From: a virus
Length of the DNA stretch: 64,000 bases
Strand: one strand, 5' to 3'
Virus record (IMG/VR): IMGVR_UViG_3300023084_000003
Positions 12,348-56,691 of this stretch are shown here, piece after piece. The notes below the pieces were generated by a model. It made no database searches and was not told where the DNA came from. It saw nothing but the letters and a program-made list of their open reading frames with translations. Every line of letters starts with the position of its first letter. The first letter of the stretch is position 1. A program made the position numbers and the translations under genes.

Positions 12348-12351
12348 ATTT

Positions 12352-12855: not shown

Positions 12856-13262
12856 TCATCTACAGATTCTAAAATCTCTTCTTTGTAATATTCATATATA
12901 TCCGGCACCATACCAGTCATATCAACTTCACCGATAGCATCAAGAATAGCATCATATGTATAACGATCTTCATCGTATGGAACAAAGTAAGGATCGTGCG
13001 GTAATAGTTCTGAGTCGTTTAATGTATCATAGAAATCTTCTTCAAAATCATCACCAATCCATGTCGCATAACAAATCGCTACTACATAAGATTTAGATGG
13101 GTAGATCCATTCATCTACATATTCTTCGAAGTGGCGAACTGCTTCTGTAATAATATCCTCGCCTTCTACTAAATTAATTTCTACGTCTCTCAGATCATCT
13201 TTATATTCTGCATCTCCGTTGACCATACTGAAATATTGCTGCCTGATTTTCCATTCTTTCAT
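12852..13262 (-). CDS. Hypothetical acidic protein in the radical SAM cluster
   Basis: 136 aa, overlaps both neighbours (4 nt and 1 nt); YPSKSYVVAICYA motif. Confidence 0.7.
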   Translation of the reverse strand: MKEWKIRQQYFSMVNGDAEYKDDLRDVEINLVEGEDIITEAVRHFEEYVDEWIYPSKSYVVAICYATWIGDDFEEDFYDTLNDSELLPHDPYFVPYDEDRYTYDAILDAIGEVDMTGMVPDIYEYYKEEILESVDE

Positions 13263-16963: not shown

Positions 16964-17402
16964 AACTAAACATTAATCCTTCTCGTACATTCAATGCTCT
17001 GTGAGGAGTATCTGCGGGTATTTGCCAAAAGTCTCCCTCCTCAAGATTATGAATAACGTCGTTCACTTCAATTGTTTTATGACCAGCACTTACATGTAAT
17101 AATACATCAACTGGGTCGGTATGTACACCAAAACTTGGCGATTCTTTCCAGTATCTAAAAGCATGAATGGTGCCTTCTTTAAAGCCACAAACGTGTTCGA
17201 TACCTTCAACCTTTATTGTATCATTAGATTCTGCAAGCTTTACTTGTACCTTTGCTAAGTACTCATTGTAGTCATCTGATACTATTTTAACATCTTTTCC
17301 ACGATTGTCAATATATAATGTGCGATCATACATATAAGCTTCATGGCTTAGTACGTATTCTTCAAAGTCTTCGTAGGACCATTTTAAATTAGGCAGTTGC
17401 AT
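16905..17402 (-). CDS. JmjC/cupin Fe(II)/2OG oxygenase-like protein
   Basis: SFGVHTDPVDVL...G.K....LEEGDFWQIPADTPHRA: HxD...H with cupin motif, as in ROXA/NO66-type cores. Confidence 0.75.
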   Translation of the reverse strand: MQLPNLKWSYEDFEEYVLSHEAYMYDRTLYIDNRGKDVKIVSDDYNEYLAKVQVKLAESNDTIKVEGIEHVCGFKEGTIHAFRYWKESPSFGVHTDPVDVLLHVSAGHKTIEVNDVIHNLEEGDFWQIPADTPHRALNVREGLMFSYGLSDTEQSECIRQDHGDV

Positions 17403-22695: not shown

Positions 22696-23271
22696 TTATC
22701 TTCTTCCTCTAGAACTGTGACAACTTGTATGACAGCTATTGTGACAATACGTAATATCAAAGTCTGCTCTATTATCTTTTAATGTATCCCATGCATTAAA
22801 TAAATTAGTGCAAAGGTTATTAAAATCAGCAGCGTGCGCAACTTCATCTTCTGTAACACCACCACTGTTAACTAATGTCATAGTTTGTCTTTGCCCAGTA
22901 TCACGGACAGTAATACCGTCAGCAGATCCTCTCTCTGTCACTGTGCCACCATCATTCTGGCGAAGCCATCTCACCTTACACTGGCGTATGTTAGTGAGGT
23001 TTCCAGTTGCCGCAGTAAGATGTAAATAAACCTTCACCGCTTCAATAGTCGTACCATCATCACCAATTCCAGTGACTGTTACATCAGAGCTTGGATTATC
23101 TGCAGCATAATTAGCGTCTGGAGCTACCTGCCCATCATCTACGCCTGTAGTCGGTGTGTGTTTTGCTGTAGAATGATACACGATTGTATTGTGGGCTGGA
23201 GTTTCCACCGCATCAATAAATGCCTGTCTCGCTGCTGAATTTTCTATTAAATCGCCTGCTGTTACCGCCAT
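22696..23271 (-). CDS. Putative fibre-tip protein and radical SAM substrate with C-terminal CHxS repeat
   Basis: 191 aa ending YCHNSCHTSCHSSRGRR (22699-22749); start overlaps the stop of the 3369-aa fibre (TAATG). Confidence 0.7.
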   Translation of the reverse strand: MAVTAGDLIENSAARQAFIDAVETPAHNTIVYHSTAKHTPTTGVDDGQVAPDANYAADNPSSDVTVTGIGDDGTTIEAVKVYLHLTAATGNLTNIRQCKVRWLRQNDGGTVTERGSADGITVRDTGQRQTMTLVNSGGVTEDEVAHAADFNNLCTNLFNAWDTLKDNRADFDITYCHNSCHTSCHSSRGRR

Positions 23272-33371: not shown

Positions 33372-33413
33372 TCGGTTCACTCTCCCCAGTTTGGCGTATA
33401 TTCTGCTTTGATA

Positions 33414-33421
33414 TATTTATA
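33414..33421 (-). promoter_or_regulatory. T4-type late promoter TATAAATA
   Basis: Exact consensus in the intergenic gap upstream of the long fibre gene. Confidence 0.8.
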
Positions 33422-33426
33422 AGATG

Positions 33427-35946: not shown

Positions 35947-36003
35947 ATGTATGTCCCTTTGTTATAATACCTATATAGGTTACAAAATAATAATAGTTGT
36001 TTC

Positions 36004-39000: not shown

Positions 39001-40188
39001 TCCTGACGGTAAAGTTACTGCACCGGTTCCACCAATTTGTAGAATACCAGTGTTAGGTGTAATAGAATTAATTACTTGGCTGGCATCTACGTGGAATTCT
39101 GTGCCTTCTAATGAAAGACCGTTACCAGCAGTAAATGTACCAACACCTTGGAATTGAGTCCAAGTAATATCGTGAACATCGAGTTGGAATGTTTCAGCAT
39201 CTGATACTGTTGCTACCCAACCAGTTTGTCCGTAAGTATTACCATCTGTTACAAACTCATATGAGCCAGGAACATCTGTTGCAGTCAGGTTAAAGAATGC
39301 TCTTCTAAGTACCCAATCAATGAGAGTAGAACCGACAACGTCGATGTTATATGAACCGTTTTCTTCTGGATTATTCTGATCTTTAACGAGGATGTTATCT
39401 CCTCTAGACCAGTTTGTAACACCGTCAATATCTAGAACTGCCGTTGCAGGAATCGTAATTGTCGCACCGATAGTTGTATTACCGGAAGCAAAAGTACCGC
39501 CAAGATCTGCTGTTGTTGCGGCAAGAGCTGACGGTCTTACAACAAGACCTTGAGCAGTATTGTCAACATATCTTTTGTTTGCGGCGTCTCGTGGATCTAC
39601 TGGATCCTCAACAACACGAACAGTTAATTCAAGAGCAACTAATTCGTCAGATAGATATTCTCGTGTTACAACGTCTGTATTTGCTTGTGGCGGTGCAACA
39701 TTGATAAGTCTATTATTACTAAATGAAACGTCATTGTTTGGACCTGCTATAGATCCAACATTAGTAAATGACAAACCATCTAGTGTTGATGTATTATCAC
39801 CTAGATTAAGTGTTGTATTTGCAAAGCTAATTGATTGAGAAGAAATAACGCCGTTAGCAACCGAGAAGTTTGATGTACTTAACTCAGCATTAGTAACAGC
39901 TGTAAGATGCCCAAACTGATCTACTGTAACATTGTTAAGTAGACCGAGAGCTGTGTTATTCGTGTTTGCTTGCGATGATGTGTCAGCGTGAGAAACTTCT
40001 ACGTTTGCTGTTTCTATCTGATTTGGAGTTACAACAATACCGTCTCCGGCTGTTATATTAGCAATATAATTGCCGGTTGTATCTGCACCAAGCGCAACTG
40101 AATCTGGTGTTATAAGAGGCTTTTTTTCTCCGGCTGCTACAAGTCTTACTGAGTTTGTTTGGGAGTTAACCTTTAATTTGATAGCCAA
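36004..40188 (-). CDS. Virion fibre/structural protein (1394 aa)
   Basis: Three GxxxxRP....GMIRFN.....FEGYDG.AW.GL.G.VIDxDQDTKI repeats, two SALAATT.DL...VKDQ...EENGSY domains, DAANKxYVD motifs. Confidence 0.75.
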   Translation of the reverse strand: MAIKLKVNSQTNSVRLVAAGEKKPLITPDSVALGADTTGNYIANITAGDGIVVTPNQIETANVEVSHADTSSQANTNNTALGLLNNVTVDQFGHLTAVTNAELSTSNFSVANGVISSQSISFANTTLNLGDNTSTLDGLSFTNVGSIAGPNNDVSFSNNRLINVAPPQANTDVVTREYLSDELVALELTVRVVEDPVDPRDAANKRYVDNTAQGLVVRPSALAATTADLGGTFASGNTTIGATITIPATAVLDIDGVTNWSRGDNILVKDQNNPEENGSYNIDVVGSTLIDWVLRRAFFNLTATDVPGSYEFVTDGNTYGQTGWVATVSDAETFQLDVHDITWTQFQGVGTFTAGNGLSLEGTEFHVDASQVINSITPNTGILQIGGTGAVTLPSGNSSDRPTPAQGMIRFNSLDGQFEGYDGIAWSGLGGVIDVDQDTKIQAENSAGSDNDQLKFFTGGTQTLLLDSTQMLANVNVVIDTTGAITIPRGNTAERPTAVQGMIRFNNQDGQFEGYDGTAWSGLGGVIDVDQDTKITAETSPGSDNDELRFITGGTLAAKIDSSNTAYFYGNVDVTGNVNIGGNITIGDANTDAIQVVADFESNLIPDADRTYNLGSTTKNWNKLFVDTLDSSDEVITIDTTGAVKIPVGNVAERPSAVTGMLRYNTDDSRFEGYDGVAWAGLAGSVIDIDQDTKITAESSPNADNDELEFFTAGVKKLTIGTNIVANSTITSAGDLNLDATGNISVNNNRITDVATPTAATDAANKAYVDTFTSNLNIISGDNGANTYNYINLIQSPTITFTEDQLEVKGVPDQANNSFEIGLTEPMVGSTGIYGNDGFTPRIRITADGRIDFATEIPVELQANAIPDFTETVHDLVGLMFTDAQAGGLNKGINFFNIDANDQIYAEVTNFDINLGGDVSGSNTVVQAGDVTIPVTITANYVNDVTSSANNSGINVTHTQSAGSTPDLILDYAYLDTRYSTTTGAVFTGNVFAPRYYDSDDNAYYMDPNGTSIIKGLKVGEGQAYSQIEMKDGASSSAYIYATSGQIGFLDQTFNFAAYADKQSGDWVVQNGDVKAERFVDADAQTYFLHPGGTNSFLKHIQVETVVQASDVKIGGSGADRRIYVDNGQDLQLQANGVSISTGTALELNVNSSRITNVAAPTAGSDAANKSYVDNTVQGLRVIPSALAATTVDLGAVYNNGAGTLTANTNVAFSVDGVISWNVGDRVLVKDQTNAEENGSYEVTEVGSGGTPWVLTRGEYFNESSEIPGSFQFVTDGTTNGGTGYVATVNDAETFSLGTDDVSWYQFSGEGTYSGGDGLTLTGTTFSVNVDNSTLEINNDTLEAKPFTIVDENGANTEITLGTSLTFIGTDGVDTTVTAGQVAIAINEIDGGTF
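38090..39030 (-). repeat. Three ~85-aa tandem repeats in the 1394-aa protein
   Basis: DNA-level near identity, e.g. gtatcttggtcaacatcaataac near 38590 and 38874. Confidence 0.85.
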
Positions 40189-40191
40189 GGG

Positions 40192-40518
40192 TTATACCTC
40201 CGTTATAGTAGGAACTACTGTCGCAAGTCCTTCTAGGAGCTTAGACGTTTCTCCGGTGGCCTTTTTCATTAACACATCATATTGGTATTTTCCGGGATTT
40301 AAAGTAGCCGTAGTATCTGCTGAAAGTACTAGGGTTACGTCGTTATTAGCAGTTTCAATATCAAAATCTACTGCTTTTTTGGACGAGTACAACTTACGCA
40401 TATCTGCATGAAACGTGATCGTGCTGAGAACCATCTCGTCATTGTCTTCGTCGAATAGCTCTAAGGATAGACGGAAATCTGTACCTTGATCTATATAGAT
40501 ATTTGCTTTGGATCCCAT
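40192..40518 (-). CDS. Small beta-sandwich virion adaptor-like protein
   Basis: ANIYIDQGTDF...L.LSA..TA.L.PG.Y.YDVLM......KLLEG...V.P pattern of BppU/LtfC-like sandwiches. Confidence 0.55.
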   Translation of the reverse strand: MGSKANIYIDQGTDFRLSLELFDEDNDEMVLSTITFHADMRKLYSSKKAVDFDIETANNDVTLVLSADTTATLNPGKYQYDVLMKKATGETSKLLEGLATVVPTITEV

Positions 40519-40543
40519 TTTAAATCTCTTTTGCTTTTTTCTT

Positions 40544-40551
40544 TATTTATA
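40544..40551 (-). promoter_or_regulatory. T4-type late promoter TATAAATA
   Basis: Exact consensus 26 nt upstream of the ATG at 40518, just downstream of a terminator. Confidence 0.8.
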
Positions 40552-40567
40552 ATAAAATGATGGTTTG

Positions 40568-40594
40568 AAAAAGGGGGTATTAGCAACCCCCCTT
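40568..40594 (-). terminator. Rho-independent terminator after the collagen-like fibre gene
   Basis: Minus strand reads GGGGGT-TGCTAAT-ACCCCC followed by TTTTT. Confidence 0.8.
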
Positions 40595-40617
40595 CAAAGT
40601 CGAGATTTAATCTGCAA

Positions 40618-43600
40618 TTACCCCTTGAATTTGTCTAAATCTTTTTTAAGTTCTTTAACTGCTTCGATGAGAAGACCAACCAAGTTTCCGTAAGATACAG
40701 ACTTAATTTTATCTTCGCTATCATCTTCAATAACAGCTTCTGGAATGATTTGTTCAACTTCTTGGGCAATGAGACCGATTCTTCTAACATCAGGATCATG
40801 TTTCTTATGGAAGTAAACACCTCTCATAGCTTCTACTTTATCTAGAGCGTTAGAAATTGTTTCGATGTTTTCTTTCAATCTAATATCAGAGTTTGTTGTA
40901 ACGTCACCAGTTGCAGTAAAGTTACCGCCTCCAGATCCCAGACCAAATGTAAACCATGCTGTTCCATTCGCTTGGTTTTCAATTGAGAATTGTTGGACTG
41001 AAGTCGTTGCATCAAACAAGAAGTTACCTGTCGCAGACTCGTAACCGAGTTTCATTACAGCGCTAGTACCGAATGTAGCATAAACATCATTCGGGAAGTT
41101 CATGTCCGATGTAATACCTGTTACAGCTCCTGATGTTGTTGTGCCATTAACTGTAAGGTTGCCACCAAGCTCTAGGTTTTCAATATAAAGTGTATCTACA
41201 TCTGATTGATAGTAGAAGTTAGATTCACCGCCTGGGTTTGGACCAGTAGTACCAAGTAGAGGTCTTTGCTCAGCGCCACCTTCAAACATTGCGATAAAGA
41301 GTGCAGTATCTTGAAGAGCAGTTGTGTGAACGTTTTGTAGGTTACCTACACCACCTTCGTTACCAAAACCTTGAGTACCCTGAATACCTTGGAAGCCAAG
41401 CTCACCTTGGATACCTTGTGTGCCCTGAATACCTTGTGCACCAGCACCAGTGAAGCCTTGGAAACCAAAATTACCTTGAAGACCTTGTGTACCCTGAAGT
41501 CCTTGAATACCTTGTATACCACCACCGCCGTCTGGGCCTTGGAAACCATACCAACCTTGAGTACCTTGAGCACCTTGGCTACCGCCTTCACCAGGACCAC
41601 CAGTGAAACCTTGAACACCATCAGCACCTTGGAAACCATAGTAACCTTGAACACCACCGACACCTTCATCGCCGGCAGTACCCTGCATACCCTGTGGACC
41701 TTGCGTACCTTGGTTACCAATTGCACCAGCTCCAATAAAGCCTTGGATACCTTGAATACCTTGATTGCCTTCGCCTCCAGGACCTTGGAAACCTTGATAT
41801 CCATCGAAACCTTGGAAACCTTGAGTTCCTACACCAGGACCACCTTGCATACCTTGAGCGCCTTGGAAGCCAGGATCACCAGTTTGGCCTTGGAAACCTT
41901 GAGCACCTTGGTTACCGTCACCCGGCGTACCTTGGAAACCTTGCGGGCCAGATTCACCGTCAGTACCTTGAAGACCCTGTGGACCTTGAGTACCTTGGAA
42001 ACCAGTACCTGAATCACCTTGGATACCTTGAACACCTTGTGAGGCTTGAGCACCCTGAACACCTTGTGTACCTTGATTACCTTGAATACCTGTACCGCCG
42101 ATACCGTCTTGTCCAGCAAAACCTTGCGTACCTTGTGTACCTTGCCCAGTTATACCCTGTGTACCTTGGATACCTTGGAAACCTTGAATACCGTCTCCAC
42201 CTAGAACACCATCAGCGCCCTGAACACCTTGTACACCTTGAGTACCTTGTGGACCTTGTGGACCAAGAGCACCTAGAGTACCTGAAGGACCTTGGAAACC
42301 TTGTACACCTTGATCACCTTGAATACCTTGCGTACCGGCACCTGTGAAACCCTGAACACCTTGAGTTCCTTGAGGACCTTGGATACCAGCAGGACCAGGT
42401 GAGCCTGGATCACCGACGTCACCAGTTCTAGCAAATGTAATGGTAATATCTTCGTCATTAGCAAATGAACCACCTACAGAACCAGATACGTAAGAAACAT
42501 CGATGGCAAAATAACCTGAAGCTTCCGTTACTCCACTGATAGTATATAGTTGGAAGTTAGCAGGTGTTTGCTTTTCAGTGATCTTAACGTGACCTTTAAT
42601 GGCACTTGTGGAATCATCGATAGTTCTTAGATATGGCTGAATGTCTGTGAAGTTATCATCACGATCATCCATCAAAAGAAGTGTAGCAGAAGATCCATTT
42701 GAGTTATTAATCTTAGCATAACCAACACCAGGATCTGATGTTGCTGTGTTTGTTGACCAAGTATAATCGAATGTTACGCCACCGAAGCTACCTGTTGAAC
42801 CCTGCGCACCATCAGCACCTTGGAAACCAAATGTACCTTGAGCACCTTGTGGACCAACTTGGCCTGGGAAGCCTTGCACACCTTGGAAACCATAATCACC
42901 TTGAATACCTTGAGCAGCTTGGAAACCTTGCATACCCTGTGTACCTTGGAAACCGTACCAGCCTTGTACACCTTGAGTTCCTTGAATACCCTGAATACCC
43001 TGCGGCCCGACCTCGGAAGTAGTAATGTTTCCACCCATTGCGCCGTGTACTGTACACTGATAGTACAATGTATCTGGAGCATTAAATGGAACTCTGAATA
43101 CTAGCTTACCATTATCTGTGCCGTTGTTTGTTACGCCTGTATTGTATGCAGCACCACCATTAGATACTCTAATCTGGAATGGATGACCTACTGCATTAAT
43201 ATCAAATACGTATGTAAATCCTCTTAGAAGATGCAGATCAGGATCAAGTACACCATCGATTGTGTAATCGTTAGGAGCATTTGGCGCAGTAACAGTAAAC
43301 TCACGGGCTCCTTCAAAGCCTTGCATACCTTGGAAGCCTTGAGTACCCTGCACACCTTGATATGCTTGTGGACCTTGTACACCCTGTACGCCTTGAGTAC
43401 CTTGTGTGCCCTGTGTTCCTTGAGTGCCCTGTGTTCCTTGAGTACCCTGTGGACCAATAGGACCGCCTGGAATAAAGTTAATGATAGCAAATTCGTCATG
43501 TGTATCAACGACTTGTGTTTGCCAGTTTGTAACTGTACTTTCGATATTTGTTACGTCAAAGTAACCCCAGTTTTTAGAAACTGAATCCCAAGTAAAGTTA

Positions 43601-45363: not shown

Positions 45364-45778
45364 CGTCTTCCTCGCTCTGACCTAATGTGAACGACAATGT
45401 AGCGTCACACGCTAAGTTTGCGGACGCTTTAATTTCCAATAAATCACCCGATGCAAAGAATTGTCCATTTAGAGGCAAAGCGAAGGTGTCATATGCCGGA
45501 ATCGGCATGTTTCTTATTACGTAAAATTCCTGGTTTAATGCGTATCTATGCGTGCGTACATCGACGTTTACAGTGTTTGCTGAGTAATTACATATAATCA
45601 AAGGACTGATGACTTCGCCTACACCCGGCTCAACCACGTTTGAACCGCCAAAAACAAGCTCAGGAACTTCGTAGTTGGGCACTTCAATAAGAATGTCCCA
45701 GTTCGTCGTTAATGTTAAGTTTTTGGCGACCGGTTTTGCGTCGGGCGCCTGGGATGTTGATATAGTTGTAATTGCCAT
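45353..45778 (-). CDS. Hypothetical virion-associated protein
   Basis: 141 aa beta-rich ORF overlapping both neighbours. Confidence 0.6.
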
Positions 45779-48700
45779 TATAGTACTGCCCTACTGTTAG
45801 AAGCTCTTCTAGCTAGTTTTCTGACCGATGACGTAAACGGTCTACCCTCAATACGTCCTGTTCTACCATTGATTCTCAGTCCTCTTGCGAAGTACTGGTT
45901 GTTCAATTCGTCAGAACCAGACCATCTAATTCTACCACCATCTTCTGAAAGAACAGAAGCGGTAGCACCAATTGCAGCACCAACGTTTCTAAAGTTTAAC
46001 GGCAACGCATTTCTGTTAACACCTGCTGATGCGCCGTTAAACTGGTGGGCAATGGATTCAACAAGCGAACCAAATGCCAAGAAGTTTGGTCTCAACACTG
46101 TACTAATCAATACGTCGTCAATCAATTCAGTAATCATAGCTCTATGTGCTGCGTTAGGTGCGATATTGGTATTTATATAATCTCTCATACGCTCCCAAGC
46201 TTTATAGAAAGATACTAGCAAATCTACATTGTTTTGATGTCCACTTGCAATCCATCCAGTGCCATTCCAGTAATGAATTTCACCAACATAATCGTTATTA
46301 TCTGGGTTAGATCCGCCTGTTGCTGATACAACGAATGCATCCCATCTCTTTGGATTAGTTAATGCATCACGTTCTGTTACTGTACCCGCACCTTTAAATC
46401 TTAGATCTCTCCAGTTAGCAAACGCGCTTGGTGGGTTAAACACTGGGAATACTGATTTTGAATCAATATCGTATAGTGCTGCTGCAAAAGATCTCATTGC
46501 TTTATCAGAACCTTCGATTGGTGGGTTCTGTGAAGGATCTGTGAAGCGAAGATCGTTTTGTATAATATCAATTAAGTTACCAGCATCACGATATGTTTTA
46601 GGTAGATCGATAAACTTATATGTTGAAGTAATAAATCTCTGTACTTCTTTCTGAAGCGCAACTTTATTATTCAACAAGATATCTCTTGAGAATCTAAACG
46701 CTTTATTCTTCTTGTCTTCCCACATGAAGTCTGGTTGAATTGTTCTACCAAGAGCTCTTGGTGTGTTATAGAATAGTGCGTTGTAGAAAATCATACCCAA
46801 GTCTTTTGCTTGCGCTTGCTGAGCTTCAGATCCCATTTCTGGGCGAAGCTTCTGACCTGGATACTTACCTACTGTAACATCACTTACAATCTTACCAAGT
46901 TGACGATAAGATTGAGCTGTTGCAACTCTTGTATCTTCCGGAATACGAAGTTCGTTATTCCAGTAATAGAAGTCTGCGTTCCAGCGAGATGCTAGGTTAC
47001 CACCGTAGTTCAAATCCCAGCTCATAGCATCAATGATGTAACCTGAGTCACGGCGACACTTAGCTTTGCTGTAATCTACGATAGTAAAGTTGTCTGAGAT
47101 AAACTTAGTTACATCATCTGCAAGATCACCGAGTTTTCCATCGATCATCTTACCTGCTGATACCTTGCTATCATCAACCCATGCTGTGTTAGGTTCGATA
47201 AGCTCAGGAACTGCATCCAATCCATCTCTTCTAATTGCTTCTTCAACAATACGAACCATGTCTGCAGCCCACTCGCCTTCAACTGCTGTCGCTGCTGATG
47301 GACCACCTGCTTCGCCAGCAACATCACCAGTAATAATCTTACTAATGTAGTTTGCCATTTCTTCATAGAAATCAGCAGTTTGTTGACGCTGATCAAATGG
47401 AAGAACGCTTGTTGCATTGTCGAAATACATATTAGCAGCAAGTCTTGTAGCATAGTTTGTTTCGTATTGTACGTCGTGTGAGATAGCGTCGAGCATAATG
47501 CCCACATCTCTACGACATTTTTCTTTAGGATAACTGATACCTTTATAAGTTGTTGAGATATGGTTAACCATGCTCGTTGTAAGTGCTTCAAGAGCATTGT
47601 CAACTTTATCTTTCTCGGTCTTAAAGATTGAAGGTACCCAATCCATATTAGGCTCGATACGTGCAGGTAGGTTATCAGGATTGTTATCATCTGCAATATC
47701 AGCAATCATAAGTGCAAGATGTTTTGCTTCCATAGCAATCTCTCTTCTTGCAGCCAATGATGACTTGTCTTGCTTGAATGATTGTCCTCTAATAACTTTT
47801 ACTGCATTGTCTGTCGCACTTACAAATGTATGTGCTCCAGCATAACCTTTAGCATATCCAGCTTGAACTGTAATTGTTGTTGCTGTTTTAGCATCAATTC
47901 TTAGCGGCTTAGCGAAAGAACCATCTGTTTCTCTTGGATGCGAGATTTGTACAGCAGGTGAACCACATTCGAAAGTAATGCTTTCTTTTTCAAACATGAT
48001 GTAATCACCAACCGCTAGGTTATGAGCACCAAGAGTAACTTCCATCACACCTGTTAAAGGATTGTATGTAGCATTTGTAGGTGTAAAGCGCTTACCGATT
48101 CTTAGATCTACATCTTCATTACGGATTACTTTGCGCATTACTTCAGCCATATGTGTAAAGGCTTTCTTAGTAGGCTCTCTCTGCTCAAGCGGCAGTAGGT
48201 TTGTCATGTTAACAAAGTAGATCTGCGCTGCATTCCACATCGCAGAGTTACCACCGTACTGAATATCATGAGAGATCGCATCAACCATGTAACCAGTGTC
48301 ACGGCGACATTTTTCTGAATCGTACTCAAGATAATCAAATTTGGATTGCAGATAAGAATTAACACCGTTTTGTAGTGTTGTCTTACGTGCTGTAATCTTC
48401 GCAACGTCTGATGCATCGGCATATCCTGTTGCGCCTACAGCTCCAGTATCTGGGAACACGGCTGCAGGTAAACCAAAGAGAGAATCTTCAGTAATCATAT
48501 TAGATACGATATTAAATAGATCTTCTACATCTTGAGCAACCTGAGTAAGAACATTACCGAATGCAGTACTTACTGTTTCAGTATTACCAGTTGTAGGTGT
48601 TACAGGAAGTTTCAACAAAATTCTTTCAGCAACTGTTGCTACATGCTCAAAGATTGCTGCAGTTTCTGTTTTCTGATCTGCAGGTAGAACTGATGTTCCT

Positions 48701-51700
48701 TGATCAAAGTATAGGCTTGCAACATCTCTCATAGCAACGTTTGAGCCATGACGGATATCCCAGCTTACCGCATCAACCATGTAACCGATATCGCGCTCAC
48801 ACTTATCTCTTTGCTCAGCTGAAAGAGCTGCCCAAAGTACTGGATAAGTTTGCTCAAAGTATGCTCTACCTTCTTTTTGCAAGAATGTTCTGTTAGCAAC
48901 CAAGCCATCAGTTGAGTTACCTTCGCTAACACCAATTCTAGATGTTCCGAAGTTGTATGTTAGACCTGATACACCATCTTTCATAATGTTGATGATGTTA
49001 TCAAATGCACCACGAGCTGTTGTAAGAGCTGTACCTGAAAGCTGTGCTTCGATGTCTTTTCTTACATACTTAATTGCTTCAATAGTTTCTGCAAGTTGGT
49101 CATTAATTACTGTGTCTGTTGAAGGATTACCAGCTCTGTAAGCACGACCTGCATACTTACTTGAGTAATCACTATTTGTTTCAACGTCTCTTCTTACAGC
49201 GTCGATAATGTATCCAACGTCTCTTGCACACTTATCTTCATCGTATGTAAAGTAAGTATCATTAATGTATCCAACAACCTCATCTTGGATGAAGCCTTTG
49301 TTCATCTGAAGTGCTTTACGAGCATATGTTCTTGATGGCTCGATAAGAGGTGCGATGTCTGTATTTGCAGATGGAAGATTTTTAAGTCTTGCTTCTGGTT
49401 TCTGAGTAATATCAAGAGATCCAGTATATTCTGGAATTACAAGACGATCATCTGTAATGTTTGAGATGATGTTAGCCAATCTCTTAGCTTCTACACCAGT
49501 TGCCGCGTCAGCAGGAAGACCCGAAGTATCTTGAGTTAGCGCATTACCTGTTGTAGGTGTAATTGCTGTCTCTGTAACAACATCTTCCATAAGATCAGCT
49601 ATATGCTCAAATGCCAGTCTTGTAGGCTCTCTTTGATATAGAGGCAGAACATTAATAGCGCCTTCAAAGTAGTATCTTGCTGCATTGATTGTTGCAGAAT
49701 CTCCACCGTATTCTAAATCTTCGGAAACCGCATCGACGATATAGCCAACATCACGTGGGCACTTATCTTCTTGATAAGCTAGACCATTATATGTTTCTCT
49801 AATATAGTCGATAATTTCAGTTTGATATTTAGCAGTTGCGCCAGCAATTTCTTCAAACATTACGTTTGTTGCTGCGTCATATCCTGTACCAGATAAAGTT
49901 GGTTCTTTAATAGTTGGTGTTGTTAGACCGGTATTGATTCCATCAGTACCATATCCTTCGCCGCCACTTACATAACCGTCTGTATCTTCGTAACCTTCAA
50001 TACCGAATGTTGTTTTGTAATCATCTTCTTCGATGATATCAGAAATTGTTCTGAATAGTTTCTCAACTTCTGTACCAACCGCAGGTGCGACAGATGGTCT
50101 GACACAGTCTGTTGCTGCACTAACAAATGTATGCGCTTCTGCATAACCTTGAGCAGTTCCAACATACATTGTAAGAATATCGCCATCAACCTTAGTAATT
50201 TCAATTGGTGTATTGAAATATGGGTCTGTTGCTCTTGGATGAGAAATCTGAGTTGCAGGAGAACCGCACTCGAATGTAATACCATTTTCTGCAATCACGA
50301 TGTAATCACCAACTGATTGACCGTGGCTTGGAATTGTCAGAGTCATAATTCCAGTTACAGGATTATATGCAGCAAATGTAGGTGTTAGAGTATTAGCAAA
50401 TGTTTGAGTTGTAGCATTTTGTTGTGTTGCCACAACTTCTTGTCTTACCAACCCACCAGCAATATCTGCAATGTAAGCATATGCTTCAGCAGTTACTGGT
50501 TTTTCTTGTTCTGCTAGTACACTTACAGCATTATCGAAGTAAACTCTTGCGTTATTTACTGTTGCAGCATTTGAGCCGTGTTGTACGTCCCATGATACCG
50601 CATCGATAAAGTATCCTAGATCTCTTTCACAATCTGCTACGTTGTAAGAAAGATCTGGATGCGTGTTTGCAATCCATGCTGTTACTTCATCTTGCAAGAA
50701 TGCTTTGTTAGATTGTAGAAGTCCTCTTGCATCTAAAGTATCTTGTGATACGTAAGATGTACCGAATGTTCTTGAGTTCGCATTACCTGCACCGTTATTC
50801 ATGATGTCGATAATTTCATCGAATGCAGCGTCAGCAGCTAGGCCAGCAGCACCTGAAGTAATTGTTGTATTGATTTTACCTTTTAGCCAAGTAATCGCAC
50901 CAACTGTTTCTGTAAGTTGATTGTTAACAACATTTTCTGCGCTTGCGTTACCAGTTCTATATGCCAAACCAGCAAATACTGCGTTAACATTAGAGCCTGT
51001 AGCCATGTCACGACGTACAGCATCAAGAATATATCCGGTATCACGAGCACATCTCTTGTCGTCGTATACGAAGTAGTTGTCTTTCAACCATGCATCGACT
51101 TCAGCTTGCAAGAATGCTTTATTAGCTTGAAGCTGCTTACGAGCAAGTGCACCATTTCTTGTAACTCTTTCAGGCAGCTTAACTACGGCGTCATAATCTG
51201 CTCTTACAAATGTATGAGTACCTGTATATCCACCTGCTGAGCCAGGATTAACTGTGATTGTATTTGCAGCAACTGCTGTAACTTCAAGTGGGAACTCGTA
51301 ATTTGGCTCGCCAATTCTTGGATGAGCAATCTCGATTGTTTCAGAAGTCGCAGTATTAACGCATGAAAGTACAACACTTGCCGGTTTAAATTCGATATGA
51401 TCGTTAGTTGTGAAATCATGAGATCCACCAAAGTCGATAATCATATCACCTGTTGTTGGGTTATAATCAACATCTATTGGTGTATGATAGCTTGCAACCT
51501 TAGCAGGGTCTGTCCAGTAGATGGCATTTGTATCTACTGAATCAACCTTAGCACTTACGAATGTATGTGCACCAGTATATCCGCCAGCATTACCCACGTT
51601 CATTGTAATTGCAGTATCAGTAACTGCTGAAATACGAACTGGTTTTCTAAATGCAGGTTCGCCATCTCTTGGGTGTGAAATTTCACCAATGTCACTTGTG

Positions 51701-54700
51701 GTTGTATTCGCACAAGAGAATCTGATGCTTTCATCTGCAAGCATTACATATTTACCAACCGGTAGGCTGTGCTGACCAATTTCTAGAGTCATATCACCAG
51801 TTAGAGGATCGTATGTACCTGTGCTTGGAGTAAACTTACCAGTATAAACTGATGAAGATGTAATTGCAAACGGTTCTGCTCTTACGAATGTATGAGCACC
51901 AGTATATCCACCGGCATCTCCAACATTAACTGTAATAGAGTCTGCAGTTACCGCGGAAATAGTTAGATCAGTATTAAATGCAGGATCTGAAGCTCTTGGA
52001 TGTGAGATTTCAACTGCTGGTGAACCACATGAGAATGTCATCGCACCTTCGTTGATCTTAATTTTTTCGCCAATTCTTAGATCATGCTCACCAATAGTAA
52101 CAGTCATAATACCTGTGTTTACATTATATGTAGCAGCAGTTGGAGTATATCCGTTGCCTCTTGCATATTCCATATGCTTAATAGCGTCTGCATCTGCGCT
52201 TACAAATGTATGCGCACCTAGATATCCGTCTGAGATTGCACCAGCATCAATAGCAATTGTATTTGCATCTGGTACATCAGTAATCTCAACCATATTGTTG
52301 AAAATTGGATCTGTAACTCTTGGGTGTGAGATTTGTACATTAGTATGAGTGTTGTTAGAACACTGATATGTGATTGCAGTTTCATCAATTACGATGTAAT
52401 CACCTTTACTTAGATTGTGTCCTACCATCTCAAATGTTGTTCTACCAGACGCTGGATCGTAAGTACTTCCTGTTGGAGTGTAGTTACGTTTTACTTCAGC
52501 ATAAGTTTTAACAGCATTTGCTTTCGCTCTTACAAATGTATGCGCACCGGTATAACCGTTTGCATCGCCAGCATTAACTGTAATAACATCGCCGGCAACA
52601 TTTGTAATTTGCATTGGTTTTCTAAATAGAGGATCAGTTGCTCTTGGATGAGAGATTTCAACCGCCGGAGTACCACATGAGAATGTGATAGACTCTTTTT
52701 CTACAATAATCATATCGCCAATTTCATAACTATGATTTGGCAATGTAAGAGTCATTACACCAGTTACCGGATCGTATGTCGCAGTTTCTGGTGTGAACTT
52801 TCTAGCACCGGTATTCATGATACCGATGATTTCGTTAAACGAATCTTTTGATTTTGCGATAGCGATAGAATCTGACATTGTATCAGAAACTTCATCTCTT
52901 AAGTGTGAGAACGCTCCAACTGTTTCAGTAAGCTGATCTGTAAGTAGAGTCTTACTTGTTCCACCACGATATGCAATACCAGCTTGGATAGCATTGAAGT
53001 TTGTACCTAACTGCATGTCTCTCATTGCTGCAGGAACAATATATTCTTTTGTATCTCTCTGACATTTTTCTGAATCGTAGAAGAACCACTCTTCATCAGC
53101 CCAGTTCATCATATAGTTTTGGATCCAAGTACGGTTATGTTGTAGCTTAGCTCTTGCATTACGTTTATCTGCAGAGATTGCAGTGTCGTCACTAAATGTG
53201 ATTGCTGAACCAAGAACTGCTACTGCGCTATCTTTTACAGATACAAGAGTATGTACACCGTTATATCCTGTAGATCCAACATTTACAGTAATTGTAGTTG
53301 CTGTTGTTGATGTAATCGGAAGTGCTGATTTAAACGCAGGGTCCGATTTTCTTGGGTGCTTGAGTTGTACTACATTACCATCTGTCGCACAAGTAAATGT
53401 GAATCCTTCTGGTTCTAGAAGAATATATCTTCCAACGTCAAGGCTGTGAGTACCTATAGTGATCTCAAAGTCACCTGTTGAAGGTGTATAAGTTACTGCA
53501 GTTGGCGTAAACTTGTCACCATCATTCTTGAGAATACCAATAATCTCATTAAATTTCTCATAAGCTTCTGCAGCAAATACCGCAGAATTAGCTTGAGTCA
53601 ACTCGTCTGTTGAAAAACGTAGTCTTTCATATGCAGCAATTGTTTCTTCTCTTTGTGCACCGATTACGTTCTTAGCAGCTTTAAAGTAATATGCATTACC
53701 TGCTGTCACAGAGTTATAGTTTGTGTCAAGCATTGTGTCATACTTAACTGCTGGCAAGATAAACTCACGAACGTCTCTCTTACACTTAGCAGAATCATAT
53801 GCATAGAATTCTTCGTTATTATCCAACCAATCGATAAATTCTTCGATGATGAATTCACGGTTATCTTGTACAACTTCACGAGCTGCAGTTGCAGGAGCAT
53901 TACCTGTATCGGTAAAGATAATGTTGTTTGCAAACTCTTCACCATTCTTAAGAATGTTAAGTGTTTCATCAATTGATGTTGAGACTCTATCATTTACTTC
54001 TGTGTTTGCATTTCTAAAGATGTGCTCGATAGAATCTTTTAGATGCTCAATAGAACCAACTGTTTCATCAAGTTGTTCATTTACAACAACATATGAAATT
54101 GGTGAGCGATAAGTAATACCGTTTAAACGACCCCAGTAGTTACCCTTGGTTGCAATGTCTAGTCCAGTGTTCTCTACGATGATTCCAGTATCACGGAAAC
54201 ACTTGTCTGCATTATACCCTTGGTAGCCAAGACCTACATCAGAATTCAATGCAGAGGCCGGATGTGTAGTGTTTGCAGTCAAGAAGTTAACCATGTCGTC
54301 AACGATTGCTTGTTTGTTCTCTGCAAGAGCGTCTGCAAAATCTGTATTAGAAAGTAACGCAATACCTTGACCTGCTGAATCTTTAGGTGCTTCTGCAGGT
54401 TTAACAATTGTTGTTTTACCGCTGGCTCTCATTGAGATGTCACCGAACTGAGAACCTGAGTTGTTCAATGTAACCTGACCACCATCAAGAGCGAAGAACG
54501 CCTGACGAGTAAAGATTGACAATGAACCAATACCGTTGATACCAGCACCGTTCTTAGCAACGTATCCTGTACCGTTTTGAGTACGAGGTGTAAAACCAAA
54601 ACAAAGTAGGTATGTGTAAAGTGAGTCAGGATCTAGAACTGCTCTGTCCATAAGCGCACAACCGCCACCACGACCAATTAGTCTGTTCGGGAAGTCGTCA

Positions 54701-56691
54701 ATACCAAGTCTTACGACTTCAGCTGTACCGCCTCTTTGTGCAGTCAGGATGTCGCCTGGTTCTACATTACCTTTAAGGTTGCGAACGTGAACTGTATTAG
54801 GTAGATCATCAATATATGAAATAAAGCCTGTGGCACCACTTGAGAATACAACCTCATCATCAATCTCAAAGTTTGCTTGACCCACAACATTAGTGATATA
54901 GAATTCTTGTCCAAGGTCGTAGATTGTACCTTTTGAGTTGAATGGATTAAGTGGAGGTTCAACATCCAAGCGGTTGAAGTTTGAAAGCTGAGAGGAGTCT
55001 CTGATATATGGAGATCTTCTCATTAGAGCACCAGGACGATAAACGATAGCGAAACCACCCTCAGGATGATCGAAGTTATCGACCTCGAAGTTCATATATG
55101 AGAAACCTTGAACGTAACAACCTGATCCAACCTGAATACCGTTTGTTCTTTCCCAACCTGGCTTCTTCTGAATAACTGTTGCATACTGACCAGCAGTTGA
55201 TGTCATTGAGCAATCATCAGGAAGAGAGATTGGTTCATCGACATAATAAGTGCCTGGTCCGACCGAGATGTGTACAGCGTTGTTAATATCGTTTCTATTA
55301 TACGAACCACCGGCTTTCTCTAATGCAAGTTCTTCAGCTCTTTTCAATGTTTGTACTGGTCTTAGAAGTGTACCATCATTGTCGTCGTCGCCGTCTGCTG
55401 AGACGTAAACCTTAAGAGCTTTTTCTGTTTTTCTTGAGAATTCGTCATAAAGTTGACGATAAGTCATTTGCTCTACATCGCCGGTCTTAACATTTTTAAG
55501 AGCGAAATAACTATCTTCGTCGATAGGAGCTTCAAACTTTTTGGTTAGATCCATGTCAAAATCGACAAGCTTAGAATCGTCGATTGTTGAGTTAGAGATC
55601 AATGAATCTTCAACATTACCGTCTGTAAATGTAGATTTATTTTGTTGTAACTCAGTTGCAGCAGAATTGTTTATAGTAATATTTTCTGCAACAGTATTTG
55701 TCATAGTACCTTGGAAAGCAGTGTTTGCAATCACTGAATTCTGTAATGTACTTTGGTCCATAGTTGTATTCGTAAATACGTTATTGTTACCAGTACCGTC
55801 TGAGAAATCTGAATTTACTATACTTGTGTTATTAGCAGTAGAATCATTTAGTTCTGAATTTGTAATAACAATATTGTTTGCAGTTGTATCAAAGATATTT
55901 GAATTACTAATTGCAGTATCGTAGATAGTACCGTTAGCAAAAATAGATCTAGTGATTACAACATTATCGAGATCGGTGTCACGAATATCTGAGTTAGAGA
56001 TAGCGACATCCCAGATCTGAGTATTACCATAGATCTCTGCATCAAAAATGTCACCGTTTGAGAAGTTCGTGGTGACGATAGTTGAGTTAGACATAAACGC
56101 GTCTTCAAGAATAATCTCGTCGATGGTAATGTTTGTAAGAATAAGACCGTTAGCTGTACCTTGATCGATAGTAACGTTATTATACTCTGAATCGTCAATA
56201 GTAGAATTTGTAAGAGTAACGTTGTTTCCTGTACCGTCATTAAACTGAGAACCAGTAATGACAGACTGAGACATTGTTATGTTGTTAGCAGACGAGTTTG
56301 TAATTCTACCAAGATCGATAGTGGTATAGGTAAACACGTTGTTATTACCAGTACCATCTGAGAAATCAGAGTTTGCTATTTCAAGATTGACACCAATAGA
56401 GCCTTCAAGACTTCCGCCAATAAATCGGGTTGTTTCGATTCGTCCATTTGTGAATGTTGAAGTGTTGATAGTAACACTTGTCAAAGTAGAATCTGACATA
56501 GATACGTTTCTAATAGTACCACCGGTGATGGTGATTCTATTAAAAATCTCGTACTGAATAGCTTGAACTAGTTCTTTACGGGTGATGTTCTTTGTGCCGT
56601 CATCACCTTGAATCAAGTTAACAATGACAAAGAGGTCTTCCGGTCTTGTATTGGCGCCGGTTATTGGACCTAATTCTGAAATCTTTGACAT
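45778..56691 (-). CDS. Giant virion structural protein (3637 aa): pentapeptide-like N-region, beta-helix entry motif, beta-barrel repeats and helical CxRD repeats
   Basis: VYVSADGDDDNDGTLLRPVQTLKRA beta-helix entry motif; 8 TPT..TY.P.TG...H.L repeats; 11-12 KCxRDxGY repeats; late promoter upstream. Confidence 0.8.
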   Translation of the reverse strand: MSKISELGPITGANTRPEDLFVIVNLIQGDDGTKNITRKELVQAIQYEIFNRITITGGTIRNVSMSDSTLTSVTINTSTFTNGRIETTRFIGGSLEGSIGVNLEIANSDFSDGTGNNNVFTYTTIDLGRITNSSANNITMSQSVITGSQFNDGTGNNVTLTNSTIDDSEYNNVTIDQGTANGLILTNITIDEIILEDAFMSNSTIVTTNFSNGDIFDAEIYGNTQIWDVAISNSDIRDTDLDNVVITRSIFANGTIYDTAISNSNIFDTTANNIVITNSELNDSTANNTSIVNSDFSDGTGNNNVFTNTTMDQSTLQNSVIANTAFQGTMTNTVAENITINNSAATELQQNKSTFTDGNVEDSLISNSTIDDSKLVDFDMDLTKKFEAPIDEDSYFALKNVKTGDVEQMTYRQLYDEFSRKTEKALKVYVSADGDDDNDGTLLRPVQTLKRAEELALEKAGGSYNRNDINNAVHISVGPGTYYVDEPISLPDDCSMTSTAGQYATVIQKKPGWERTNGIQVGSGCYVQGFSYMNFEVDNFDHPEGGFAIVYRPGALMRRSPYIRDSSQLSNFNRLDVEPPLNPFNSKGTIYDLGQEFYITNVVGQANFEIDDEVVFSSGATGFISYIDDLPNTVHVRNLKGNVEPGDILTAQRGGTAEVVRLGIDDFPNRLIGRGGGCALMDRAVLDPDSLYTYLLCFGFTPRTQNGTGYVAKNGAGINGIGSLSIFTRQAFFALDGGQVTLNNSGSQFGDISMRASGKTTIVKPAEAPKDSAGQGIALLSNTDFADALAENKQAIVDDMVNFLTANTTHPASALNSDVGLGYQGYNADKCFRDTGIIVENTGLDIATKGNYWGRLNGITYRSPISYVVVNEQLDETVGSIEHLKDSIEHIFRNANTEVNDRVSTSIDETLNILKNGEEFANNIIFTDTGNAPATAAREVVQDNREFIIEEFIDWLDNNEEFYAYDSAKCKRDVREFILPAVKYDTMLDTNYNSVTAGNAYYFKAAKNVIGAQREETIAAYERLRFSTDELTQANSAVFAAEAYEKFNEIIGILKNDGDKFTPTAVTYTPSTGDFEITIGTHSLDVGRYILLEPEGFTFTCATDGNVVQLKHPRKSDPAFKSALPITSTTATTITVNVGSTGYNGVHTLVSVKDSAVAVLGSAITFSDDTAISADKRNARAKLQHNRTWIQNYMMNWADEEWFFYDSEKCQRDTKEYIVPAAMRDMQLGTNFNAIQAGIAYRGGTSKTLLTDQLTETVGAFSHLRDEVSDTMSDSIAIAKSKDSFNEIIGIMNTGARKFTPETATYDPVTGVMTLTLPNHSYEIGDMIIVEKESITFSCGTPAVEISHPRATDPLFRKPMQITNVAGDVITVNAGDANGYTGAHTFVRAKANAVKTYAEVKRNYTPTGSTYDPASGRTTFEMVGHNLSKGDYIVIDETAITYQCSNNTHTNVQISHPRVTDPIFNNMVEITDVPDANTIAIDAGAISDGYLGAHTFVSADADAIKHMEYARGNGYTPTAATYNVNTGIMTVTIGEHDLRIGEKIKINEGAMTFSCGSPAVEISHPRASDPAFNTDLTISAVTADSITVNVGDAGGYTGAHTFVRAEPFAITSSSVYTGKFTPSTGTYDPLTGDMTLEIGQHSLPVGKYVMLADESIRFSCANTTTSDIGEISHPRDGEPAFRKPVRISAVTDTAITMNVGNAGGYTGAHTFVSAKVDSVDTNAIYWTDPAKVASYHTPIDVDYNPTTGDMIIDFGGSHDFTTNDHIEFKPASVVLSCVNTATSETIEIAHPRIGEPNYEFPLEVTAVAANTITVNPGSAGGYTGTHTFVRADYDAVVKLPERVTRNGALARKQLQANKAFLQAEVDAWLKDNYFVYDDKRCARDTGYILDAVRRDMATGSNVNAVFAGLAYRTGNASAENVVNNQLTETVGAITWLKGKINTTITSGAAGLAADAAFDEIIDIMNNGAGNANSRTFGTSYVSQDTLDARGLLQSNKAFLQDEVTAWIANTHPDLSYNVADCERDLGYFIDAVSWDVQHGSNAATVNNARVYFDNAVSVLAEQEKPVTAEAYAYIADIAGGLVRQEVVATQQNATTQTFANTLTPTFAAYNPVTGIMTLTIPSHGQSVGDYIVIAENGITFECGSPATQISHPRATDPYFNTPIEITKVDGDILTMYVGTAQGYAEAHTFVSAATDCVRPSVAPAVGTEVEKLFRTISDIIEEDDYKTTFGIEGYEDTDGYVSGGEGYGTDGINTGLTTPTIKEPTLSGTGYDAATNVMFEEIAGATAKYQTEIIDYIRETYNGLAYQEDKCPRDVGYIVDAVSEDLEYGGDSATINAARYYFEGAINVLPLYQREPTRLAFEHIADLMEDVVTETAITPTTGNALTQDTSGLPADAATGVEAKRLANIISNITDDRLVIPEYTGSLDITQKPEARLKNLPSANTDIAPLIEPSRTYARKALQMNKGFIQDEVVGYINDTYFTYDEDKCARDVGYIIDAVRRDVETNSDYSSKYAGRAYRAGNPSTDTVINDQLAETIEAIKYVRKDIEAQLSGTALTTARGAFDNIINIMKDGVSGLTYNFGTSRIGVSEGNSTDGLVANRTFLQKEGRAYFEQTYPVLWAALSAEQRDKCERDIGYMVDAVSWDIRHGSNVAMRDVASLYFDQGTSVLPADQKTETAAIFEHVATVAERILLKLPVTPTTGNTETVSTAFGNVLTQVAQDVEDLFNIVSNMITEDSLFGLPAAVFPDTGAVGATGYADASDVAKITARKTTLQNGVNSYLQSKFDYLEYDSEKCRRDTGYMVDAISHDIQYGGNSAMWNAAQIYFVNMTNLLPLEQREPTKKAFTHMAEVMRKVIRNEDVDLRIGKRFTPTNATYNPLTGVMEVTLGAHNLAVGDYIMFEKESITFECGSPAVQISHPRETDGSFAKPLRIDAKTATTITVQAGYAKGYAGAHTFVSATDNAVKVIRGQSFKQDKSSLAARREIAMEAKHLALMIADIADDNNPDNLPARIEPNMDWVPSIFKTEKDKVDNALEALTTSMVNHISTTYKGISYPKEKCRRDVGIMLDAISHDVQYETNYATRLAANMYFDNATSVLPFDQRQQTADFYEEMANYISKIITGDVAGEAGGPSAATAVEGEWAADMVRIVEEAIRRDGLDAVPELIEPNTAWVDDSKVSAGKMIDGKLGDLADDVTKFISDNFTIVDYSKAKCRRDSGYIIDAMSWDLNYGGNLASRWNADFYYWNNELRIPEDTRVATAQSYRQLGKIVSDVTVGKYPGQKLRPEMGSEAQQAQAKDLGMIFYNALFYNTPRALGRTIQPDFMWEDKKNKAFRFSRDILLNNKVALQKEVQRFITSTYKFIDLPKTYRDAGNLIDIIQNDLRFTDPSQNPPIEGSDKAMRSFAAALYDIDSKSVFPVFNPPSAFANWRDLRFKGAGTVTERDALTNPKRWDAFVVSATGGSNPDNNDYVGEIHYWNGTGWIASGHQNNVDLLVSFYKAWERMRDYINTNIAPNAAHRAMITELIDDVLISTVLRPNFLAFGSLVESIAHQFNGASAGVNRNALPLNFRNVGAAIGATASVLSEDGGRIRWSGSDELNNQYFARGLRINGRTGRIEGRPFTSSVRKLARRASNSRAVL

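Follow-up and report, generated by a model that had tools for sequence, protein, structure and literature searches.

The phycobiliproteins (PF00502; CpcA, allophycocyanin and the bilin domain of ApcE) are ring-forming subunits of 160-180 amino acids (aa) that make up the thylakoid antenna. Their CXRD motif, as described by Rockwell, Martin and Lagarias (2023, PMC10151467), contains a Cys that is covalently bound to the bilin, and its other two conserved residues hydrogen-bond the pigment. The same source reports this CXRD in BBAG-1 and BBAG-3, globins of heterotrophic bacteria to which bilins are attached without a lyase, and places photoglobins as the sister group and RsbR globins as the outgroup of the bilin-binding globins. 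Here we describe a comparable motif in a virus: within a stretch of 64,000 nucleotides from the IMG/VR virus record IMGVR_UViG_3300023084_000003 (hereafter, the window), an open reading frame (ORF) of 3637 aa on the minus strand (45778..56691) carries a whole array of tandem units, predicted to share the globin-type helical core of the phycobiliproteins. The antenna proteins are thylakoid subunits, whereas the phage units are arranged as 12 tandem copies in one virion protein.

On the side of the viruses, the role of the phage cpeT gene has been called unresolved (Sullivan et al. 2010, PMC3037559), and a 2024 Nature Communications article (PMC11480375) leaves open the purpose of phage hemO-pcyA/X cassettes, naming a BBAG-type globin as a possible acceptor. 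Adjacent ho1 and pcyX-like genes have been reported from large freshwater phages (2020 preprint). The 3637-aa ORF shares its structural module and PHROG labels with the giant virion structural, short tail fiber and gp7-like proteins of cyanophages, and the same domain is found in the T4-GC734 giants of S-PM2, Syn1 and S-RSM4 and in ORFs of 6000-7300 aa in Syn9, S-SM1, P-SSM4 and others, with 1-13 profile matches per genome. None of the giant domain-bearing proteins in the cyanophage records inspected (S-PM2, Syn1, S-RSM4 and others) has a biliprotein-like annotation. No paper on biliprotein-like virion domains was found in the literature on cyanophage virion proteins, phage PcyX and haem oxygenase, and CpeT, a body of sources to which subscription journals contributed little.

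A conserved motif in a virion repeat array

Judged from homology and gene location, the 3637-aa ORF probably encodes part of the fibre or baseplate of a T4-like cyanophage. The PHROG families that it matches strongly are phrog_701 (virion structural protein, 1.4e-135), phrog_5342 (tail fiber protein, 1.8e-116) and phrog_4527 (short tail fiber protein, 1.4e-67). The window corresponds to the tail-fibre region of such a phage, with every large ORF on the minus strand and with products that match tail-fibre, baseplate and virion-structural PHROGs, a Gp38 adhesin and an S74 intramolecular chaperone. The G+C content of the window is 35-44%. A megablast search of the region against 50,697 phage records returned no near-identical DNA; IMG/VR contigs reach 99% identity, and the closest match in a phage isolate has 37% identity, over one unit.

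A regular-expression scan places the Cys of the C-x-R-D motif at residues 831, 970, 1210, 1881, 2021, 2311, 2488, 2631, 2795, 3059 and 3212, with a degenerate twelfth copy, T-Y-R-D, at residue 3366. The eleven occurrences compare with 0.084 predicted from the composition of the protein, and 2000 shuffles gave a mean of 0.08 and a maximum of 3. The whole protein has 24 Cys residues; eleven lie in C-x-R-D, and eight more belong to a second repeat family that conserves one Cys per copy. A reading made from the DNA sequence alone (the sequence-only reading) had counted 11 Cys-containing copies and one degenerate copy between 46560 and 54215, and the scan agrees with it in number and in place: the first Cys codon is at 54199-54201 and the last at 47056-47058, the degenerate copy lies near 46596, and the two sites it gave as examples were located to within ~3 bases (Cys2311 at 49759-49761 and Cys2488 at 49228-49230).

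Each motif sits in a helical unit of ~130-180 aa, and pairwise identity among the units of the protein is 19-36%. A profile built from the 12 units recovers all of them in the ORF, which follows by construction, and it has no match at E<=10 among the other window ORFs of at least 80 aa. Two subtypes can be distinguished, A-type (Cys 970, 1210, 1881 and 2488) and B-type (Cys 2021, 2311, 2631, 2795, 3059 and 3212), which are homologous to each other (hhalign, 99.3%). The copies are true repeats; neither they nor the motif are an artefact, and both are strongly constrained. This constraint is evident in 45 related viral loci, retrieved with a 905-aa piece of the protein, in which a local profile search identified 394 units whose motif position is occupied by Cys in 334, Thr in 28 and another residue in nine, the remaining 23 having no motif by regular expression. 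After removal of identical rows, 230 distinct copies with residues in the motif columns were left, and these keep the Cys in 210 (91%), the Arg in 224 (97%) and the Asp in all 230 (100%). Further near-invariant positions, numbered from the Cys, are Asp +14 (229/230), Tyr +30 (209/229) and Thr +46 (192/215). Even loci with only 25-28% protein identity to the 3637-aa ORF still read C-x-R-D-[VIM]-G-[YL].

A tblastn search with one unit against the 50,697 phage records matched 169, named Synechococcus (123), Cyanophage (35), Prochlorococcus (10) and Marine (1), and the domain is present in 14 of 17 complete cyanomyovirus isolates, the three without it being P-SSM2, S-SM2 and S-SSM7. The number of profile matches is four in P-HM1, four in P-HM2, nine in S-PM2 and none in P-SSM2. 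A search of proteins of 88-322 aa for a stand-alone version yielded four matches, three of them on contigs shorter than 2 kb, and no stand-alone family of the phage domain was seen in this size range. The fourth match, a protein of 151 aa encoded on a 29-kb contig (E 4e-8 with the repeat profile; 63% identity over 31% of the query), may represent the domain in a shortened or split version.

Predicted fold of the repeat unit

A B-type unit (aa 2262-2445) was modelled with AlphaFold2 from a 28-row alignment, resulting in six helices with the motif at the start of the third (predicted local distance difference test score, pLDDT, 78.4; predicted template modelling score, pTM, 0.70). VIA-align was run with this model against all 48,161 PDB representatives, without a Foldseek prefilter, and phycobiliprotein-family chains take the first eight places (Z 13.7-10.8, with 115-145 residues aligned). 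Allophycocyanin is first (8or7_A; Z 13.7, root-mean-square deviation 3.6, 123 residues aligned), followed by phycoerythrin (5aqd_M, 13.4), the bilin domain of ApcE (4xxi_A, 12.0), 8imk_G (11.5), 7eyd_19 (11.4), 7sc7_BD (11.2), 1b8d_A (11.1) and 9wg7_N2 (10.8). Because helical models commonly score Z below ~13 and often near 14, the argument for the fold rests on one family filling the top ranks and not on the score itself. After the biliproteins come the photocobilin 8j2w_B (10.1), globin-coupled sensors (9.8 and 9.7) and then RsbR-type globins, all with the same globin core (Z 10.1-9.3). This ranking follows the published order of bilin-binding globins first and photoglobins and RsbR after them; since the latter two are described as sister and outgroup of the bilin-binding globins, the photocobilin and RsbR matches fit the same superfamily. 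A Foldseek search of 350,542 PDB chains with the B-type model returned phycoerythrin and cryptophyte biliprotein chains in its first 11 rows (E 0.04-0.08, probability 1.00, query TM-score, TMq, 0.43-0.58), the first non-biliprotein row being a flavohaemoglobin at rank 17.

As a control for memory of the motif, we modelled an A-type unit with K-E or R-E in place of G-Y behind the motif; the underlying alignment comprised 27 units, none of which has Gly at the second residue past the Asp. The control has the same six-helix pattern with lower scores (pLDDT 64.3, pTM 0.52). In VIA-align its best match is an RsbR globin (Z 10.0), followed by allophycocyanin (9.8), ApcE (9.5), a de novo bundle (9.3) and then phycobilisome chains; seven of its top 12 matches belong to the phycobiliprotein family (Z 9.8-8.4), over residues 43-137 only. 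In Foldseek the top 11 matches of the control are all biliprotein alpha chains or smURFP (E ~1, TMq 0.43-0.53). Structures of relatives from BFVD, which were predicted by others, gave 11 matches to the B-type model at E<=0.001 (TMq 0.56-0.73); every one comes from a Synechococcus phage or an uncultured tailed phage and is a fibre, tail or structural protein. A feature search of the ESM Atlas found no biliprotein cluster (best score 0.86). Both predicted models show the globin-type core of helices A, B, E, F, G and H, the control more weakly, and on these models the domain very probably belongs with the bilin-binding globins, the phycobiliproteins being the closest solved structures.

Sequence similarity to phycobiliproteins

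For comparison at the sequence level, 11 CpcA and 11 CpcB sequences were taken from cyanobacterial genome contigs and each set was aligned. In a single pre-specified hhalign comparison, the B-type unit aligned with the CpcA set with a probability of 84.7% (P 6.7e-6), placing Cys50 of the unit on Cys84 over 36 columns only (CpcA residues 73-108). The A-type control profile reached 22.7% over 21 columns. HMMER alignments likewise put the unit Cys at the bilin-Cys position, and C-x-R-D falls on Cys84, Arg86 and Asp87 of helix E of CpcA. The register proposed by the sequence-only reading holds for the copy at Cys2311, in which K-C-x-R-D-[VI]-G-Y, V13, L17 and G20-G21 all align with CpcA. Searched against PDB sequences, the 12-unit profile retrieved phycocyanin alpha chains as six of the ten sequences listed at E<=10 (E 0.31-0.97), and a 28-sequence profile retrieved CpcB (E 0.11) and four phycocyanin alpha chains (E 0.92-1.3). 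CpcA lacks an Asp at +14, which is near-invariant in the phage unit.

Bilin genes and light-dependent adsorption in domain-bearing phages

Among the 17 complete cyanomyovirus isolates, cpeT (PF06206) is present in exactly the 14 that carry the domain. Across 22 complete isolates, both are found in 19, neither in three, and one without the other in none; five of the 22 had been picked because they bear the domain, and all five have cpeT. In a g23 tree the three double-negative isolates form one clade (99/100), so the concordance of 22/22 amounts to one evolutionary contrast, and co-occurrence was for this reason rejected as a statistical argument. The rows for Syn9 and Syn19 in this tree are wrong ORFs on a long branch, which leaves the clade of three isolates unaffected. 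Gene order is more telling than co-occurrence: in S-PM2, Syn1 and S-RSM4, which occupy one side of a single branch of the g23 tree, the giant domain-bearing short tail fiber gene is preceded on its own strand, 0.7-1.5 kb upstream, by a long-form cpeT, the two being separated by a 2-oxoglutarate (2OG)-Fe(II) oxygenase gene, tRNAs or an HNH gene, and in S-WAM2 and Sf-CH11 cpeT is 3.4 and 1.8 kb, respectively, upstream of the first domain match. The 2OG-Fe(II) oxygenase gene is directly upstream of the giant gene in S-PM2 and Syn1. In the S-PM2 record (NC_006820, 165928-177267), RefSeq annotates 16 tRNA features within the coding sequence of the giant short tail fiber protein and gives this sequence a tRNA-style locus tag, which looks like an annotation fault.

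Two further domain-bearing genomes from distant phage lineages, G034 (353 kb, 98% complete) and G029 (96 kb), are free of psbA and psbD, and each has adjacent genes for haem oxygenase and a ferredoxin-dependent bilin reductase (FDBR). In G029, the genes follow one another on one strand in the order domain protein (1701 aa), three RCC1-like fibre proteins, haem oxygenase, FDBR, uroporphyrinogen decarboxylase and porphobilinogen deaminase; the domain-bearing protein also has CBM_5_12 modules, and the bilin cassette is ~8 kb downstream of it (G029:35000-54000). The pair in G034 is ~195 kb from the domain gene in the same genome. Genes for psbA/psbD (PF00124) were found in none of five distant domain-bearing contigs, one of which is near-complete. 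In these distant relatives the setting may resemble that of the BBAGs, which are described as non-antenna globins of the phycobiliprotein clade encoded beside haem oxygenase and FDBR genes; BBAGs are stand-alone bacterial proteins, whereas the phage domain occurs in fibre arrays, and the comparison is with their published description. A search with the FDBRs of G034 and G029 matched 495 viral contigs, of which the best 80 were kept and 40 of these (>=30 kb) were searched for the domain. Eight carry it, seven of the eight contigs at >=35% completeness and one of the 32 at <=23%; as close relatives of G034, they represent one lineage and no independent sample. In G034 (33000-42000) the haem oxygenase/FDBR pair lies between genes for Hsp70, Hsp20 and ClpS and the curli secretion genes CsgF and CsgG, the latter hinting at a host other than a cyanobacterium. 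For pmoC (PF04896), a possible link to published methanotroph phages, five large FDBR-bearing contigs gave no match, and neither did the control genomes, which makes the negative uninformative.

Adsorption phenotypes are available for some of these phages. According to Liu et al. (2019, PMC6628666), P-HM1 and P-HM2 fail to adsorb in the dark, and P-SSM2 adsorbs there, though at a lower level than in the light. As far as these published accounts go, the carriers of the domain P-HM1, P-HM2 and S-PM2 adsorb light-dependently and the dark-adsorbing P-SSM2 lacks it, a correspondence that would fit a light-sensing fibre on three independent lineages only. The fibre would then be a virion-borne array of bilin photoreceptors in which absorbed light gates adsorption. 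We consider this extension of the pigment hypothesis improbable; if true, it would explain a light-dependent adsorption of cyanomyoviruses that is independent of host photosynthesis, and it would also account for the role of phage cpeT and for bilin-synthesis cassettes in phages without psbA.

Proposed bilin attachment and alternative explanations

What is shown here is a repeat with a conserved motif and a predicted fold, placed in a virion module and co-occurring with certain genes. Taken as a whole, this is best explained, tentatively, by an array of bilin-carrying globin-type domains in the fibre; that the motif Cys itself carries a bilin in the particle is a possibility that we take seriously and hold at somewhat less than even strength. 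We infer homology proper, ligand binding and a pigment role, either as a light sensor in adsorption or as a structural cofactor. In the likeliest mechanism, the fibre rod would consist of twelve tandem globin-type domains of the bilin-binding clade (phycobiliproteins and BBAGs), interleaved with a beta-rich repeat, each domain presenting C-x-R-D at the start of the helix equivalent to phycobiliprotein helix E. Inside the infected cell, a linear tetrapyrrole supplied by the host, or by a phage haem oxygenase and bilin reductase, would become thioether-linked to the motif Cys; as happens in phycobiliproteins, its pyrrole nitrogens and a propionate would be held by the Asp and Arg. The domains could catalyse this attachment themselves, in the manner of BBAG-1 and BBAG-3, or be helped by a phage CpeT lyase homologue, and the released virion would bear the bilin array. 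If the domains do bind bilins, the virus particle would be equipped with a light-absorbing array of pigments, something that the literature found does not describe, and there would be a concrete acceptor protein for cyanophage cpeT and for phage haem oxygenase/FDBR cassettes, with a bearing on light-dependent adsorption.

A number of results weigh against this explanation, beginning with the sequence comparisons. Besides the short span of the CpcA alignment, hhalign against CpcB gave a probability of 0.9% (unit Cys50 on Cys82). The match to PF00502 stays below its cut-off (13.3 bits against 22.2; E 0.082) and covers aa 2533-2570 against profile positions 118-155 only; the homologous stretch of the nearest related record, G001, scores 13.4 bits. 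In the searches of PDB sequences, the best row of the 12-unit profile is a pollen allergen (E 0.25) and the 28-sequence profile matches dehydratases at E-values similar to those of biliproteins. Nothing in five whole cyanobacterial genomes matches the repeat profile at E<=1, so that on a genome scale neither phycobiliproteins nor BBAGs are retrieved with it by sequence. Taken alone, the sequence does not prove homology past one helix, the similarity to phycobiliproteins being confined to the C-x-R-D helix. In the structure searches, the Z-scores lie in the range that helical models often reach, neither model has a Foldseek row at E<=0.001 in the PDB, and the AlphaFold models could lean on memory of the motif. 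Nor does the B-type model have a counterpart of the N-terminal X and Y helices, from which the alpha-beta monomer and the ring are built: its structural alignments start at residues 22-49 of the biliprotein chains, and the unit has only ~40 residues ahead of the motif. The sequence-only reading had proposed tandem domains of globin/phycobiliprotein fold; the fold part is supported, on predicted structures, by two AlphaFold models and two structure searches, and the sequence similarity is restricted to one helix, which is half of what that reading had named as refuting it.

The genomic context adds to the same side. The cpeT concordance is a single contrast in a sample partly selected for the domain, the FDBR-selected contigs are one lineage, and P-SSM2 and S-SSM7 have haem oxygenase and FDBR and lack the domain. 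No cpeT was found in 36 IMG/VR contigs with relatives of the 3637-aa protein, mostly fragments and one a 353-kb contig that is 98% complete, and no cpeT, haem oxygenase or FDBR among the 30 of 43 window ORFs of at least 120 aa that were scanned. We know of no report of pigmented cyanophage particles, for which no specific search was made. T-type lyases are described in a review (PMC10452541) as serving Cys153 of beta subunits, not Cys84.

The domains could have the same fold without a pigment, as rigid helical fibre spacers whose Cys, Arg and Asp are kept for folding, for contacts between domains or subunits or for metal binding. This is a substantial possibility, if a doubtful one. It would agree with the finding that nothing typical of phycobiliproteins is conserved beyond helix E, the near-invariant Asp +14, Tyr +30 and Thr +46 not being phycobiliprotein residues, with the position of the domains beside collagen-like, chitin-binding and lectin-like modules in fibre proteins, with the absence of cpeT from the 36 related contigs, and with the retention of the last unit despite its Thr for Cys. 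Spacers alone would leave less reason for one Cys to persist at the same helix position in 91% of 230 copies, across loci ~25% identical and always with Arg and Asp, and one lone Cys per domain makes an intradomain disulfide impossible. These three residues also make up the bilin site described for phycobiliproteins and BBAGs, and gene context ties the domain to bilin genes in three lineages. Even if the domains bind nothing, they would be a clear reuse of the fold of an antenna protein as a building block of phage fibres.

A break with the phycobiliproteins altogether, in which a generic helical repeat has a look-alike motif and AlphaFold was pulled to a memorised biliprotein fold, is unlikely in our judgement. 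The sequence-database statistics are all marginal and the Foldseek E-values exceed 0.001, the control has a pLDDT of 64.3 with RsbR as its best VIA-align match and a de novo helical bundle in fourth place, and the ESM Atlas search, with a best score of 0.86, shows no biliprotein cluster, all as such a look-alike would have it. Yet two differently built structure searches rank biliproteins first among 48,161 and 350,542 chains, the control without G-Y still retrieves them, the independently predicted BFVD relatives agree with the B-type model, hhalign sets the Cys on Cys84 (P 6.7e-6), and the RsbR and photocobilin matches fit the published superfamily of bilin-binding globins. A globin-type domain could also bind another ligand, namely haem, a cobalamin-related or other tetrapyrrole held non-covalently, or a host surface molecule in receptor recognition. 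Haem-binding sensor globins and photocobilin domains score just under the biliproteins (Z 9.7-10.1), and the 3637-aa protein sits in a receptor-recognition module; against this, the conserved triad is that described for bilins and not a haem motif. The proximal His of haem globins has no conserved counterpart, neither subtype alignment nor the 230 distinct copies having an invariant or near-invariant His, and this makes a proximal-His haem site unlikely. By published description, BBAG-2 and photoglobins lack CXRD and other sensor globins bind haem through His, whereas the phage domain has CXRD and no conserved His. We regard a different ligand as quite improbable.

Domain architecture of the 3637-aa protein and neighbouring genes

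The 3637-aa protein begins with a pentapeptide-like repeat region at about aa 59-327 (55711..56517, minus strand, as are all features below), which matches phrog_15350 (aa 58-271) and, with E 7.3e-10 and 39.2 bits (cut-off 38), Pfam Pentapeptide_4, the latter best at aa 259-326. The globin-type units, delimited by motif scan and profile, start with unit 1 (aa 785-918, 53938..54339; Cys831 in C-F-R-D). Three A-type units follow: unit 2 (aa 929-1058, 53518..53907; Cys970 in C-K-R-D-V-R-E, no G-Y), unit 3 (aa 1171-1296, 52804..53181; Cys1210 in C-Q-R-D-T-K-E, no G-Y), which is the unit folded as the control, and unit 4 (aa 1843-1968, 50788..51165; Cys1881). Unit 5 is B-type (aa 1980-2106, 50374..50754; Cys2021), and its last helix appears to be placed beyond an inserted beta-rich repeat. 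The B-type unit 6 (aa 2271-2399, 49495..49881; Cys2311 in K-C-P-R-D-V-G-Y) was folded as aa 2262-2445 and is succeeded by the A-type unit 7 (aa 2450-2574, 48970..49344; Cys2488 in K-C-A-R-D-V-G-Y). The remaining B-type units are unit 8 (aa 2589-2720, 48532..48927; Cys2631), unit 9 (aa 2756-2883, 48043..48426; Cys2795), after which a beta-rich repeat is inserted, unit 10 (aa 3017-3134, 47290..47643; Cys3059) and unit 11 (aa 3171-3295, 46807..47181; Cys3212). Unit 12 is the degenerate copy (aa 3327-3446, 46354..46713), in which Thr replaces the Cys of the motif and Arg and Asp are kept.

Among the globin-type units lie eight copies of the second repeat family (47794..53514), each of ~100 aa and marked by H-P-R at aa 1112, 1348, 1456, 1564, 1673, 1790, 2151 and 2918. 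Its invariants are P, Y, G, H, C, H-P-R, G, G-Y, H-T and V, and in two places a copy seems to be inserted ahead of the last helix of a globin-type unit. No Pfam family matched it, and the only match among PDB sequences is a weak one to a WD40 blade of PLRG1 (E 0.002).

Elsewhere in the window, a second giant ORF of 3369 aa with a GTG start (23271-33380) has weak tail-fibre PHROG matches only, at its C-terminal end, and the repeat profile finds no globin-type unit in it. A gene cluster at 11090-20411 encodes putative peptide- or cofactor-modifying enzymes: three 2OG-Fe(II) oxygenases (11090-12855), four radical-SAM proteins (13986-15942 and 17389-20411), one of them with a B12-binding domain, a SPASM-domain protein (15902-16963) and a cupin/JmjC protein (16905-17402). 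Finally, a 250-aa ORF at 7202-7954 joins cytidylyltransferase-like and mannose-6-phosphate isomerase/cupin domains.

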